In this document: positions 21,093-30,981 of the stretch, piece by piece
How positions within the stretch are numbered: position 1 is the stretch's first letter
Layout: every line of letters starts with the position of its first letter
From: Escherichia coli
Lineage (GTDB): Bacteria > Pseudomonadota > Gammaproteobacteria > Enterobacterales > Enterobacteriaceae
Strand: one strand, 5' to 3'
NCBI RefSeq assembly: GCF_003334355.1
Contig: NZ_QOWP01000038.1
DNA: 30,981 nucleotides
The notes under the pieces: generated by a model
What the model was told of the DNA's origin: nothing
Databases searched by the model: none
Seen by the model: only the letters and a program-made list of their open reading frames with translations
Program-made: the position numbers and the translations under genes

Positions 21093-21281
21093 CTGACGCT
21101 AGTATAACGGAAGCAAATCATCTGCAATGCATTAAGCAGCAGGCAAATTGAGGATAAAAAAAACCCCCACATCATGTGGGGGAAGACAGGGATGGTGTCA
21201 CAATAAATCACCTAACCTGATGATATAAATGGATTTATATCAACCGCTGTCCACATAGCGTCCACATCGTTCAGCGTCCGT
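21093..21281. other. Candidate prophage attachment junction (chromosome/P2-like prophage boundary)
   Basis: Non-coding gap between fieF and the first phage-side ORF. Contains hairpin CCCCCACAT-CATGTGGGGG (about 21154-21178) flanked by A8, and two direct repeats at 21248-21256 and 21259-21267 (minus strand ATGTGGACA / ATGTGGACG), spaced 11 bp. Confidence 0.4.
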
Positions 21282-21923
21282 TTAATCGGACGCTTTTAAA
21301 TTTTTATTTTTCCCAGCAGAAAAATTAGCTTTCCCGCTGTTTTGCAACTCAACAAGAGGAGATAACCGTCGGTAAACAGCCAAAAGTATCTTTAACTGAA
21401 CCAGTTCATCTGCCCCCGATAGTTGAACCAAGTTTTTACGTTGTTCTTCACTAAGTGCCATCACAGATTCAAGTGATTTAACTGCGTCAGAAACAAGTTC
21501 AATCTCTTTAATTTGATTCTGTATACGCAGCTTCTCTGATTTCAACTTTGCCCATTCTCTTTGTCGATATGTACGCATCACCTGATCGTAAACTTTGTTG
21601 GCAGCCAGAATACTTCCACCAACAGCAGTAACTAACTCAGCAATCTGCCAAGAGATATCAATAAGAGCAGACAATTCAATAAAGCCAGGAGAGGCATACT
21701 GAATTTTTTTCACTACAGGACGTAAATCTGGTGGAGTCGCACTGTAAGCCCCTCTAAAAAAGTTCACTACACTGTGCCCACCCTCCCAAGGCATTGTTGA
21801 ATATCCTCTTGATCCTCCTTTTAGGCCATAAAAAAAACCATATAGCTGCAAATACTCTTTCGTTAAGACCGCGAAATCAGCTAACTCCCAACGATTATCA
21901 AGCTCAATTATAACTTTTTCCAT
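21282..21923 (-). CDS. Hypothetical protein, prophage cargo (moron) of unknown function
   Basis: 213 aa from ATG at 21923 (MEKVIIELDNRWELADFAVLTKEYLQLYGFFYGLKGGSRGYSTMPWEGG...) with GGTGA-type RBS upstream; an in-frame TTG at 21941 would give 219 aa. Visibly AT-rich. Own AT-rich upstream region (21942-22023). Not CpxP; no motif I recognise; C-terminal half looks coiled-coil. Confidence 0.7.
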   Translation of the reverse strand: MEKVIIELDNRWELADFAVLTKEYLQLYGFFYGLKGGSRGYSTMPWEGGHSVVNFFRGAYSATPPDLRPVVKKIQYASPGFIELSALIDISWQIAELVTAVGGSILAANKVYDQVMRTYRQREWAKLKSEKLRIQNQIKEIELVSDAVKSLESVMALSEEQRKNLVQLSGADELVQLKILLAVYRRLSPLVELQNSGKANFSAGKNKNLKASD

Positions 21924-22023
21924 TTTCACCAACCTGTCCAACTTTAAAAATTGACTTTTAAGTATATGATAAACATGGTTTATTAAACGTGATCCACTAC
22001 TTTTAATGAAGAATATTCCCCAA

Positions 22024-22057
22024 AACAGAAAGCCCCTCGACTGAGGGGCTTTCTGTT
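22024..22057 (-). terminator. Rho-independent terminator downstream of ogr
   Basis: Hairpin AGAAAGCCCCTC-GACT-GAGGGGCTTTCT; on the minus strand followed by a T-tract. Confidence 0.65.
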
Positions 22058-22062
22058 TGTAA

Positions 22063-22281
22063 CTACATCCACATAATTTGCTGCCCTGATGGCAACGGGT
22101 GCGGCCTTACGGCGTGGACTTCTCCCGGCTTCACGATGTATCGCTGTACCGACTCATAAGTGATGAACGTGGCGCTGCAATTCACGTTCTGGCACTGGTG
22201 ATAACGCTCTTTTGTCGTGTCAGTGATATAGCGGCTTGTACGCGCATGTGCGGCATGCTGGCATAAAGGACAATGAAACAT
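22063..22281 (-). CDS. ogr: Late-gene transcriptional activator Ogr (zinc-finger)
   Basis: 72 aa from ATG at 22281: MFHCPLCQHAAHARTSRYITDTTKERYHQCQNVNCSATFITYESVQRYIVKPGEVHAVRPHPLPSGQQIMWM; Cys4 zinc-finger pattern, matches P2 Ogr as recalled. The ORF-track start at 22365 is an extension. Confidence 0.93.
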   Translation of the reverse strand: MFHCPLCQHAAHARTSRYITDTTKERYHQCQNVNCSATFITYESVQRYIVKPGEVHAVRPHPLPSGQQIMWM

Positions 22282-22361
22282 CGCGAGCACCTCTTCCGGT
22301 TTTGTTGATGGTGCCATTTTAGTTAATTTATCCTTATAAAACAAACAGATAAGATAAAACA

Positions 22362-29317: not shown

Positions 29318-29344
29318 GATGGATCCCCTGAATAAAAACCGGGG

Positions 29345-29851
29345 ATGATGCCAGTTAGCCGTAATCTCTGCATTTTCTTAAACGTTGGTTTGGGAGAAGG
29401 CTCCGCGCTACCGGTGGGCGTACCGGTTCCGTGGCCTCTCCCGAACCCACCACAGGGATGGCTTAAATATAACGGTGCGCCCTTCGATAAAAACATATAT
29501 CCGAAATTAGGTGCAGTTTATCCGGCTGGCGTATTACCCGACTTACGCGGCGAGTTTATTCGCGGCTGGGATGATGGGCGGGGAGTGGATGCAGGGAGAA
29601 TCATATTAGCTCAGCAGGGTGATGCTATTAGAAATATTACAGGTTTCGTGAGTGGTTCTTCTGGCGTTTCGTTTGATAGTTTTTCTGGTGCTTTTTACGA
29701 TTCGGGGGTAAGAAGCGGCAGAAGGCCTGAGAGTACGACTATTGTTGATATGAATGATGATTTTGCTTTTGATGCTTCCCGGGTAGTGCCAACTGCAAAT
29801 GAAAATCGCCCGCGAAATCTTGCATTCAATTACATAGTTCGTGCAGCTTAA
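29345..29851 (+). CDS. Alternative tail-fibre C-terminal cassette (N-terminally truncated, probably silent in this orientation)
   Basis: 168 aa ORF with tail-fibre motifs LPVGVPVPWPLP, YPAGVLPDLRGEFIRGWDDGRGVDAGR and C-terminal VVPTANENRPRNLAFNYIVRAA; residues from 29480 are encoded by the inverted repeat shared with the minus-strand fibre gene. Confidence 0.7.
   Translation: MMPVSRNLCIFLNVGLGEGSALPVGVPVPWPLPNPPQGWLKYNGAPFDKNIYPKLGAVYPAGVLPDLRGEFIRGWDDGRGVDAGRIILAQQGDAIRNITGFVSGSSGVSFDSFSGAFYDSGVRSGRRPESTTIVDMNDDFAFDASRVVPTANENRPRNLAFNYIVRAA
29373..29398. other. Candidate hix/gix-like recombination crossover site
   Basis: TTTTCTTAAACG-TT-GGTTTGGGAGAA: imperfect 12-2-12 dyad; right half GGTTTGGGAGAA matches the gix right half GGTTTTGGATAA in 10 of 12 positions (from memory); sits next to the invertase start. 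Confidence 0.3.
29480..29637 (+). repeat. Inverted repeat, left copy (tail-fibre switch)
   Basis: 29480-29637 is the reverse complement of 30981-30824 with one mismatch seen (29566 C vs partner 30895); compared by eye. Homology breaks at 29638 where the two tips diverge. Confidence 0.85.
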
Positions 29852-29904
29852 ATGAAAAGCCGTCTTAATGGGGTCAGTCCATAATGACGGCTTAATCATC
29901 TTTA

Positions 29905-30510
29905 TCAAATTGAGGGCGGCTCAGGTAGTATCGCAGTTGGAAAATCTGAGGGTTTAATGGCATTCAGCGCATCAATATAATCAAGCCACAGGTTAAACTT
30001 GCTTGTTTCTGTTTCGCTCATTCGATTGAGTTGTAACTTTGAAGGCCAGTTATTTTTATTAATGACCGCATTAGCCTCATCAATCAGCGCCTGAATTTTC
30101 ATTTCAAATGCCTGAACGTCAGCAACTCTTTTTGCATCGATATCCGTTATCCACTCAGTACCATTCCAGACATCAAATTGAGTTTCTGGCGCAATTGTGG
30201 TGGTATTTTCTGGAAGCTCTCCTAAAAACCGAACAGTGATTTTCTCCCCTGTATCAGTTTTATAAACTTCTGCTTCACGGTGATCTTCAACATACTCCCA
30301 GCCGTTCAGATCTTCATTACGACAAATAGCAAAGCCAGCCTTGAATTTGCCGGGTTTATCAGTACAGGAATGGGCAGGCACGCCCACGCCTTCTGCAAGA
30401 TATTCAACGGTTGATGACAGGTACTCACGGGTGATGGCATCATAGTTATAAACAGTGATTTCACCTGCCGATGATGCGATCCCATATGTATTCAAAATAG
30501 CTTCACTCAT
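29905..30510 (-). CDS. Tail fibre assembly protein (Tfa / Mu U / P2 G family chaperone)
   Basis: 201 aa from ATG at 30510 (MSEAILNTYGIASSAGEITVYNYDAITREYL...FLGELPENTTTIAPETQFDVWNGTEWITD...) with AGGA RBS; resembles e14 TfaE / Mu U as recalled. Confidence 0.85.
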   Translation of the reverse strand: MSEAILNTYGIASSAGEITVYNYDAITREYLSSTVEYLAEGVGVPAHSCTDKPGKFKAGFAICRNEDLNGWEYVEDHREAEVYKTDTGEKITVRFLGELPENTTTIAPETQFDVWNGTEWITDIDAKRVADVQAFEMKIQALIDEANAVINKNNWPSKLQLNRMSETETSKFNLWLDYIDALNAIKPSDFPTAILPEPPSI

Positions 30511-30582
30511 TCTCTTATCCTTCGTGCTGGGGCAAGATTCTACTATACTGAGCGTTCTCACTTATTCTTGATATTGATGTTG

Positions 30583-30981
30583 TTACATAGCCCTCACAAT
30601 GTAATTAAATGACAGGTTACGTGGGCGGTTTTCATTTGCAGTTGGAACCATCAAGGAAGCATCAAAAAAAAGCGCAGCAAATCTATCGTCTGTCGCTCCA
30701 ATAGCAACATCTACTTGAGCGGCATACGATCCAAACTCACCGTCAGTGCGGAAAGCACCTGTTGCCCCTGCATTAAAAAGCCTTGCTGATGTAGCTGCAT
30801 TTCGTCCCTGAACCCCACCAGTGATATTTCTAATAGCATCACCCTGCTGAGCTAATATGATTCTCCCTGCATCCACTCCCCGCCCATCATCCCAACCGCG
30901 AATAAACTCGCCGCGTAAGTCGGGTAATACGCCAGCCGGATAAACTGCACCTAATTTCGGATATATGTTTTTATCGAAGGG
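30583..30981 (-). CDS. Tail fibre protein, C-terminal portion (partial; 5' end beyond window)
   Basis: Minus-strand frame open from the window end to the stop at 30583; encodes ...YPAGVLPDLRGEFIRGWDDGRGVDAGRIILAQQGDAIRNITG then a divergent 70 aa tip ending VPTANENRPRNLSFNYIVRAM; followed by the tfa gene. Confidence 0.85.
   Translation of the reverse strand, partial: PFDKNIYPKLGAVYPAGVLPDLRGEFIRGWDDGRGVDAGRIILAQQGDAIRNITGGVQGRNAATSARLFNAGATGAFRTDGEFGSYAAQVDVAIGATDDRFAALFFDASLMVPTANENRPRNLSFNYIVRAM
30824..30981 (-). repeat. Inverted repeat, right copy (tail-fibre switch), truncated by window end
   Basis: Reverse complement of 29480-29637; runs to the last base of the window, so its true length is unknown. 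Confidence 0.85.

Follow-up and report, generated by a model that had tools for sequence, protein, structure and literature searches.

Our analysis revealed that positions 21153–30981 of the window, the 30,981-nt stretch of Escherichia coli DNA analysed here, very probably constitute the end next to attR of a P2-family (Peduovirus) prophage whose attachment specificity is that of phages WΦ and L-413C. The original prediction of a P2-like prophage is supported by the BOB′/POP′ pattern of the junction, by a complete prophage in E. coli EC31, and by the published cpxP–fieF site. About 9.8 kb of phage DNA is visible before the window ends at 30981; the rest of the prophage is presumably present in this genome, and the int, immunity and capsid genes and attL would lie beyond that point. 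The prophage type and the cpxP/cpxQ–fieF site are already known, and the one slightly novel feature is a small cargo gene beside the junction, akin to one portion of an already described anti-phage toxin.

The host side of the window (265–21199) aligns colinearly with K-12, from rpmE to cpxQ, in a single HSP of 99.37% identity. The K-12-like synteny predicted for the host flank holds for this region, but not for the leftmost 264 nt, which form the terminal part of an Rhs element and are not K-12-like. The fieF gene lies on the minus strand (20172–21092), and the host B′ arm (21093–21152, minus strand) is the unaltered 60 nt 5′ of its start codon, identical to the K-12 cpxQ–fieF spacer and within the same HSP. 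By BLAST, similarity to K-12 extends to 21199, a position within the cpxQ sRNA gene, while homology to the L-413C attP begins at 21153; the overlap of the two defines a 47-bp att core at 21153–21199 (minus strand). The true junction is therefore this core, which begins within 3 nt of the block start originally placed at 21150.

Alignment of the K-12 attB, the window attR, the EC31 attL and the L-413C attP showed the BOB′/POP′ pattern of site-specific integration. The phage P′ arm (21200–21269, minus strand) is 96.6% identical to the L-413C attP. Two Int arm-type repeats, TGTGGAC, lie 11 nt apart on the phage side (21249–21255 and 21260–21266, minus strand), and both match the P2-type arm consensus tgTGGaCa (PMC3448106). 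The core and P′ arm correspond to those of the L-413C attP and the host side is the K-12 spacer, as expected for WΦ-type specificity; the link to WΦ is that the L-413C core is the same as the WΦ core (PMC3448106). The P2 core differs, and P2 integrates elsewhere (in part from PMC3448106). The cpxP–fieF interval is listed as the site of the P2-like prophage Wphi1 in E. coli W, and WΦ/Wphi1 and L-413C share this integration site with the window prophage (PMC3032704). The window contains one copy of the core, that of attR, and EC31 carries both 47-bp copies exactly. The same fieF-side attR junction was found in 789 of 5,426 complete E. coli genomes, approximately one in seven. The complete prophage of EC31, the frequency of this junction and the published Wphi1 site together indicate a known element type at a known site; the prophage itself is common and well understood.

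The attR copy of the core comprises nt 15–58 of the CpxQ sRNA (its 3′ 44 nt) plus 3 nt, and the K-12 annotation has a cpxQ ncRNA where the core lies. A terminator scan placed the cpxP/CpxQ terminator hairpin (21164–21182), with its U-run, within the core. The body and terminator of CpxQ, an envelope-stress sRNA, are the WΦ-type att core, and cpxQ joins rybB, cyaR and ssrA as sRNA genes used by P2-like phages. A search of a limited literature collection found no paper linking the WΦ-type att core to CpxQ. In Rfam there was no CpxQ family; the sole match, a sub-threshold Hrs1 in the terminator region but on the other strand, occurred in both the window and K-12 and was taken as uninformative. 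No tRNA or tmRNA that could have served as an integration target is present in the window.

We propose that the prophage arose by recombination between the phage attP and a 47-bp host sequence, catalysed by a tyrosine integrase whose gene would lie beyond the window; the host sequence makes up the 3′ part of the cpxP 3′UTR, which is the CpxQ sRNA gene. Phage and host share an identical core, so CpxQ with its terminator would be rebuilt on the cpxP side (attL), and a partial copy would remain in front of fieF (attR). Since the att core lies within cpxQ, every such lysogen should carry a second, 5′-truncated CpxQ copy upstream of fieF.

The ogr end was correctly predicted to be the att-proximal end, as the attR core is located there; a cargo gene lies between them. 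The phage block does follow fieF, but its first gene is not ogr: a 213-aa cargo ORF (21282–21923, minus strand) comes first. This gene occupies a low-GC insert of 760 bp (21270–22029, minus strand; GC about 41%) that separates the P′ arm from the ogr terminator. In the alignment with L-413C, which has no cargo between ogr and att, 9 nt stand at the position of the 760 nt in the window. The insert is present in 159 of the 5,426 complete E. coli genomes. The cargo protein (WP_000416606.1), a solo short form, matches PADLOC PD-T4-10_B (7e-35) over profile positions 137–346 of 353, which is the C-terminal domain only, whereas long-form homologues cover positions 1–348 and retain an overlapping upstream A gene. 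It thus has in common with PD-T4-10 (Vassallo et al. 2022, PMC9519451) the conserved C-terminal domain of toxin B and, like that system, is prophage-borne in E. coli. PD-T4-10 also has an A gene and a roughly 135-aa N-terminal domain of B; at the cargo gene there is neither an overlapping upstream PD-T4-10_A nor a full-length B of about 350 aa. For the PD-T4-10 system of ECOR65, B is reported to be toxic and the system to protect against T-even phages (PMC9519451). No ORF of at least 30 aa was found between ogr and the cargo gene, and no antitoxin-sized ORF lies nearby on either strand. No convincing promoter emerged from a simple scan for sigma-70 elements in the region preceding the cargo gene; a weak TATACT −10 element can be seen there by eye.

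The cargo gene would most likely be a prophage accessory gene acting against other phages, and the 760-bp insert with its one gene would form a second accessory module, between ogr and attR. We nevertheless consider the chances about even that the gene has a non-defence role, being either a moron of an unrelated kind (lysogenic-conversion or selfish) or the inactive remains of a PD-T4-10-like toxin. This explanation is favored by the missing PD-T4-10_A and N-terminal domain of B, and by the annotation searches, in which the protein had no PHROG, NCBIfam or Pfam match and the fold and structure searches yielded nothing informative. In contrast, family alignment showed that the short solo form is a widespread, well-conserved family with invariant motifs, and it is therefore under selection. 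The family, whose architectures are the solo form and the long form with A, occurs in mobile contexts, including prophage ends and integron-cassette-like arrays in Vibrio, and a homologue in a Pseudomonas prophage adjoins the PADLOC defence candidate PDC-S21; these contexts also argue against a non-defence role. As regards the anti-phage reading, the ogr–attR junction holds variable cargo, one version of which is the solo short PD-T4-10 toxin domain. We tentatively suggest that, in WΦ-type P2-like prophages, this junction may be a third cargo slot besides the published A–Q (tin/old) and Z/fun hotspots, here with an antitoxin-less relative of the PD-T4-10 toxin domain acting as a single-gene anti-phage factor by abortive infection or exclusion; this combined proposal is possible, though doubtful. 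The solo short form at this junction is therefore a cheap candidate for testing single-gene phage defence. Much less likely, the 3′UTR of the cargo transcript could yield a truncated CpxQ-like Hfq-binding RNA, because the transcript would end at the duplicated CpxQ terminator.

Beyond the insert, the gene order ogr, D, U, T, E/E′, FII and FI on the minus strand, as in P2, was confirmed by the ORFs and by PHROG and NCBIfam matches, and all genes are full length. The late-gene transcription activator ogr (22063–22281, minus strand; 72 aa) matched the NCBIfam equivalog PRK09678/NF007241 at 177.6 bits (cut-off 116) and phrog_603. Just downstream of it, a terminator-like hairpin, AGCCCCTC-N4-GAGGGGCT (22031–22050, minus strand), was read from the sequence; it is conserved in L-413C and absent from the list of the consensus terminator scan. 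The remaining genes, all on the minus strand, are D (tail/late control D; 22362–23525; phrog_52, 1.9e-187), U (tail protein; 23525–24004; phrog_76, 3.8e-84), T (tape measure, 815 aa; 24019–26466; phrog_28, 4e-253), the tail assembly chaperones E and E+E′ (26459–26886; phrog_103 for E and phrog_1756 for E′), FII (tail tube, as annotated in L-413C; 26943–27461; phrog_55, 3e-76) and FI (tail sheath; 27474–28664; phrog_23, 1.3e-159). E′ occupies 26459–26614 and E 26611–26886. A −1 frameshift heptamer, T_TTT_TTG, was read in the E frame at 26638–26632, and the −1 frame runs on into the E′ ORF; the slippery site is intact, and the same joined CDS is annotated in L-413C. The P2-type late operon FI-FII-E-E′-T-U-D, then ogr, is present on one strand and is intact in the window. 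The gene lengths equal those annotated in L-413C, and the nucleotide identity of the block to P2-group phages is 94–99%. In L-413C the tail genes follow this order too, with a nucleotide identity of 95.8%. P2, the type Peduovirus, likewise shares the ogr-D-U-T-E′/E-FII-FI order, the E/E′ −1 frameshift and the P2-type Int arm repeats, with about 97% identity over the tail genes.

Where P2 has Z/fun, the window phage has a Gin/Cin-family serine DNA invertase (28724–29317, minus strand; phrog_125, 4.6e-101), which matches the Mu Gin structure 3UJ3 (1.2e-94) over residues 1–182. The invertase and tail-fibre genes originally noted beyond FI were indeed present, the latter as an invertible segment: tail-fibre tip and chaperone ORFs occupy 29345–30981. 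A 26-bp crossover site, TTCTCCCAAACCAACGTTTAAGAAAA (29373–29398, minus strand; single copy in the window), marks the invertase-proximal end of the segment, at the outer end of an inverted repeat, and the alignment with EC31 changes strand at approximately 29382. The segment itself (29399–30981, both strands; PHROG tail-fibre and assembly matches) contains the alternative tip Hv′ (to 29851, plus strand), a single tail-fibre assembly chaperone (29905–30510, minus strand) and the in-phase tip Hv (30583–30981 and beyond, minus strand). It carries a 165-nt inverted repeat, 29480–29644/30817–30981, that runs off the window end. As the window ends inside the segment, the second crossover site should lie about 107 nt past this end; the partner site, TTCTCGCATACCTTGGTTTGGGAGAA, was seen in EC31. 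The segment has the opposite orientation in EC31 at 99.9% identity, showing that both orientations occur and that the segment flipped recently.

The Mu G segment with Gin and the P1 C segment with Cin resemble this module in having a Gin-like serine invertase (1e-94), alternative C-terminal tips, and a pair of inverted 26-bp crossover sites within the fibre gene, the partner site here being taken from EC31. The invertase and segment would switch the C-terminal tip of the tail-fibre protein H, which may cause phase variation of host range in the way known from Mu and P1. In Mu and P1 there is one chaperone per tip; in contrast, the segment of the window and EC31 is only about 1.7 kb and has a single chaperone gene for two tips. 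L-413C has an unrelated ORF at the Z/fun position, no invertase, and a fixed H–G fibre module.

The best overall match of the window is EC31, which is 99.5% identical over window positions 18723–29644; none of the complete E. coli genomes in the collection matches the block at 100%. EC31 carries a complete 29.4-kb P2-like prophage between cpxP and fieF, with the exact 47-bp direct repeats at both ends and an intact cpxP-cpxRA beyond the far end. Its order is int-C-cox-B-A-Q-P-O-N-M-L-X-lysis-R-S-V-W-J-I-H-fibre segment-invertase-FI-FII-E-T-U-D-ogr-cargo; the tyrosine integrase, C/Cox, B, A and Q P O N M L are all present, at positions that correspond to those outside the window, and its Int is 98% identical to that of L-413C. 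The P2-like remainder predicted beyond the window was thus found in the closest sequenced relative, while the window itself ends at 30981.

A decayed tail-end remnant, with the rest of the prophage deleted, would also show only about 9.8 kb of phage DNA in the window, and such a remnant, ogrK-D′ of K-12, is listed as an ogr-D′ P2 remnant at cyaR (PMC3032704). However, the eight tail genes, ogr and the invertase all have their full length, the slippery site of E/E′ is undamaged, the invertible segment flipped recently, and EC31 has the complete prophage; we consider decay improbable. A P2-derived tail-only bacteriocin (tailocin) cluster can be practically dismissed: R-type tailocins derive from P2-like tail modules and tail genes are all that can be seen in the window, but ogr and an att core with Int arm-type sites occur at the junction, the identity to bona fide phages is 94–99%, and genes for capsid, terminase, replication and integrase are found in the EC31 element, which is nearly identical.

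Other P2-like elements also have a DNA invertase beside FI, as in the window: the E. coli O157:H43 T22 prophage (KC618326), whose Int is 98% identical to that of EC31, pro483 and S164. KC618326 appears to lack the cargo, because its match falls into two pieces and the missing length in this alignment is about that of the cargo; the matches of pro483 and S164 start only past the cargo position, at query base 930. In WP2-W18-CRE-03 the cargo region is matched at 100%, whereas the fibre module is of another kind and an IS621 is present. Three points had been overlooked in the original prediction: the cargo gene, the correspondence of the att core to cpxQ, and the position of the window end inside the invertible segment.

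The element that follows fieF (20172-21092, minus strand) belongs to the P2-like phages that integrate in the WΦ manner, and an invertase module makes it a mosaic. On the host side, the proposed K-12-like synteny from rpmE to fieF holds, because positions 265-21199 gave one colinear HSP against E. coli K-12 MG1655, spanning rpmE to cpxQ at 99.37% identity with a single gap. Beyond fieF, the minus-strand block of P2 genes in the original prediction was confirmed by the open reading frames and their PHROG and NCBIfam matches, by gene lengths equal to those annotated in the Yersinia P2-group phage L-413C, and by 94–99% DNA identity to P2-group phages. 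The block comprises ogr (22063-22281; NCBIfam equivalog match at 177.6 bits, exceeding the cut-off), the PHROG tail protein genes D (22362-23525) and U (23525-24004), the tape measure gene T (24019-26466), E' (26459-26614; phrog_1756), E (26611-26886; phrog_103), the tail tube gene FII (26943-27461), the tail sheath gene FI (27474-28664) and a DNA invertase gene (28724-29317), all on the minus strand, followed by fibre tips and a chaperone matching tail fibre and assembly families (29345-30981). The E/E' −1 frameshift heptamer, T_TTT_TTG, is located at 26638-26632, and the −1 frame runs directly into E'. The GC content was approximately 41% at 21000-22000 and 56% across the tail genes, compared with 50% in the host flank. 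At the left edge, an Rhs element ends next to rpmE (positions 1-264), where K-12 has its yiiX junction; the Rhs arrangement is common to 2,177 of 5,426 genomes.

Homology to K-12 stops at 21199, and homology to the attP region of L-413C starts at 21153. The 47 bp common to both (minus strand) is GACACCATCCCTGTCTTCCCCCACATGATGTGGGGGTTTTTTTTATC. A four-way alignment of K-12 attB, the window attR, L-413C attP and the attL of E. coli EC31, the nearest complete genome, revealed classical arm exchange around this core. Coliphage WΦ is reported to have the same attP core as L-413C, and two phage-side TGTGGAC repeats (21249-21255 and 21260-21266, 11 nt apart) fit the P2-type Int arm-site consensus (PMC3448106).

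EC31 was the best complete-genome match, with 99.54% identity across 18723-29644 and, in inverted orientation, 99.94% against 29382-30981. It carries a complete 29.4-kb P2-like prophage between cpxP and fieF in the order int, C, cox, B, A, then Q, P, O, N, M, L, X, lysis, R, S, V, W, J, I, H, fibre segment, invertase, FI to D, ogr and a cargo gene, with exact copies of the 47-bp core on both sides. Past its far side cpxP and cpxRA are intact, and the integrases of this prophage and L-413C share 98% identity. In E. coli W, a P2-like prophage, Wphi1, likewise occupies cpxP-fieF (PMC3032704), and of 5,426 complete E. coli genomes, 789 have the fieF-side junction (B' arm, core and P' arm). Thus, the predicted P2-like prophage at fieF-cpxP is supported, as a common, known element type at a known site, by the junction, the EC31 proxy and the published site, while its remainder would lie outside the window. 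That this genome still has the remainder is suggested by the intact genes and by the fibre segment, which flipped recently. The anatomy shows no departure from known mechanisms. The A-Q (tin/old) defence hotspot of the EC31 prophage (L001 19005-20088) comprises 1.08 kb with no annotated gene and a longest ORF of 88 aa.

In K-12, the core falls within the annotated ncRNA gene cpxQ (b4716) and corresponds to nt 15-58 of the 58-nt CpxQ sRNA, terminator hairpin and U-run included, plus 3 bases. Therefore, in lysogens, CpxQ is complete at attL, and a second copy, before fieF, is truncated at its 5' end. From the core through the 60 nt that precede the start codon of fieF, the sequence is the same as in K-12, except for loop base 21172, so the immediate fieF upstream region is preserved. 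This loop residue of the CpxQ terminator hairpin is A in the window, both EC31 copies and L-413C attP, and C in K-12. The cargo gene has the truncated copy downstream of it, on its own strand, and the intact terminator of this copy is the first intrinsic one after the gene. We found no paper tying CpxQ to P2-like integration in the literature searched, and no CpxQ family in Rfam. The opposite strand of the cpxQ region gave a match to Hrs1, an Hfq-regulated sRNA, below the gathering score of 56 (31 bits in the window, 21156-21200, plus strand; 41 bits in K-12, L002 1316-1388, minus strand). That the WΦ att core maps to CpxQ is a small addition and no discovery.

Relative to L-413C, a 760-bp insert (21270-22029) separates the ogr terminator hairpin from the P' arm. 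Its sole gene, the cargo gene (21282-21923, minus strand), was absent from the original prediction and encodes a 213-aa “hypothetical protein” (RefSeq WP_000416606.1) without a match in PHROG, NCBIfam or Pfam. The protein matched the PADLOC PD-T4-10_B models (7e-35) at profile positions 137-346 of 353 only. PD-T4-10 of ECOR65 is a two-gene toxin-antitoxin/abortive-infection system, with toxin B and antitoxin A encoded by overlapping ORFs (PMC9519451). In contrast, no ORF for PD-T4-10_A was found by the cargo gene, nor is there room for one; since A is absent and the B profile is covered only in part, the cargo gene does not qualify as a PD-T4-10 system on the features that define one. An AlphaFold model (pLDDT 80) combines an alpha/beta domain at the N terminus with a long helical hairpin, and a structural-neighbour search with it returned nothing informative. 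Our best guess, which we consider about evenly balanced, is that the gene is a single-gene prophage accessory factor against other phages. Solo PD-T4-10B-domain cargo is, again, a small addition and no discovery.

An exhaustive profile search for the cargo family gave 789 representative clusters with two architectures: solo proteins of about 210–240 aa, including the cargo protein, and proteins of about 330–370 aa with an extra N-terminal domain, which match the whole B profile. In one of the two long-form neighbourhoods examined (P0237), an overlapping upstream gene matches PD-T4-10_A; for long form P0177, one contig has a 140-aa upstream ORF, and the other has no such ORF. Solo forms are found in Enterobacter at a prophage end adjoining an ogr remnant, in Vibrio within cassette-like arrays, and in a Pseudomonas sp. 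GM80 prophage (L007 6001-7668), directly followed by a DUF4917 protein that matches the PADLOC candidate PDC-S21 (2.5e-97). The motifs PWxGGxS..NFF, IQYASPG and LKILL..YRR are invariant in the family.

The cargo was present in 159 of 5,426 complete genomes. The ogr-attR interval is variable, since it holds the 213-aa gene here, whereas DSM 103263 (L019 1664-2065) has an unlike hypothetical ORF of 133 aa there, oppositely oriented and with no PADLOC match, and L-413C (L003 3118-3126) has nothing. The P2 hotspot literature searched describes the A-Q and Z/fun loci only, with no ogr-attR slot. In strain WP2-W18-CRE-03, the cargo region is 100% identical to that of the window, and IS621 lies between sbp and pfkA (L004 16576-17556).

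The invertase and Mu Gin are close homologues (PDB 3UJ3, 1.2e-94, residues 1-182). With the fibre module, the invertase holds the position that Z/fun occupies in P2, and an invertase module is known from further P2-like prophages, KC618326 and pro483 among them. WP2-W18-CRE-03 has a different tail-fibre module, without an invertase and with chaperone pseudogenes. The invertible segment in the 29345-30981 region contains two alternative tips and one tail-fibre assembly chaperone gene. An inverted repeat has arms at 29480-29644 and 30817-30981, the latter reaching the window end, and its outer end bears a 26-bp crossover site, TTCTCCCAAACCAACGTTTAAGAAAA (29373-29398); the EC31 counterpart of the repeat is 272 nt. 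The partner crossover site, TTCTCGCATACCTTGGTTTGGGAGAA, is inside the EC31 H gene and, by register with EC31, would lie approximately 107 nt beyond the window end. In the window orientation, the tip at 30583-30981+ would be joined to H and followed by the chaperone (29905-30510), and the opposite strand carries the alternative tip (to 29851); the EC31 segment has the opposite orientation. Inversion would place the chaperone gene antisense to late transcription. Both tips have a similar C-terminal end, a 72-nt inverted repeat that is 82% complementary.
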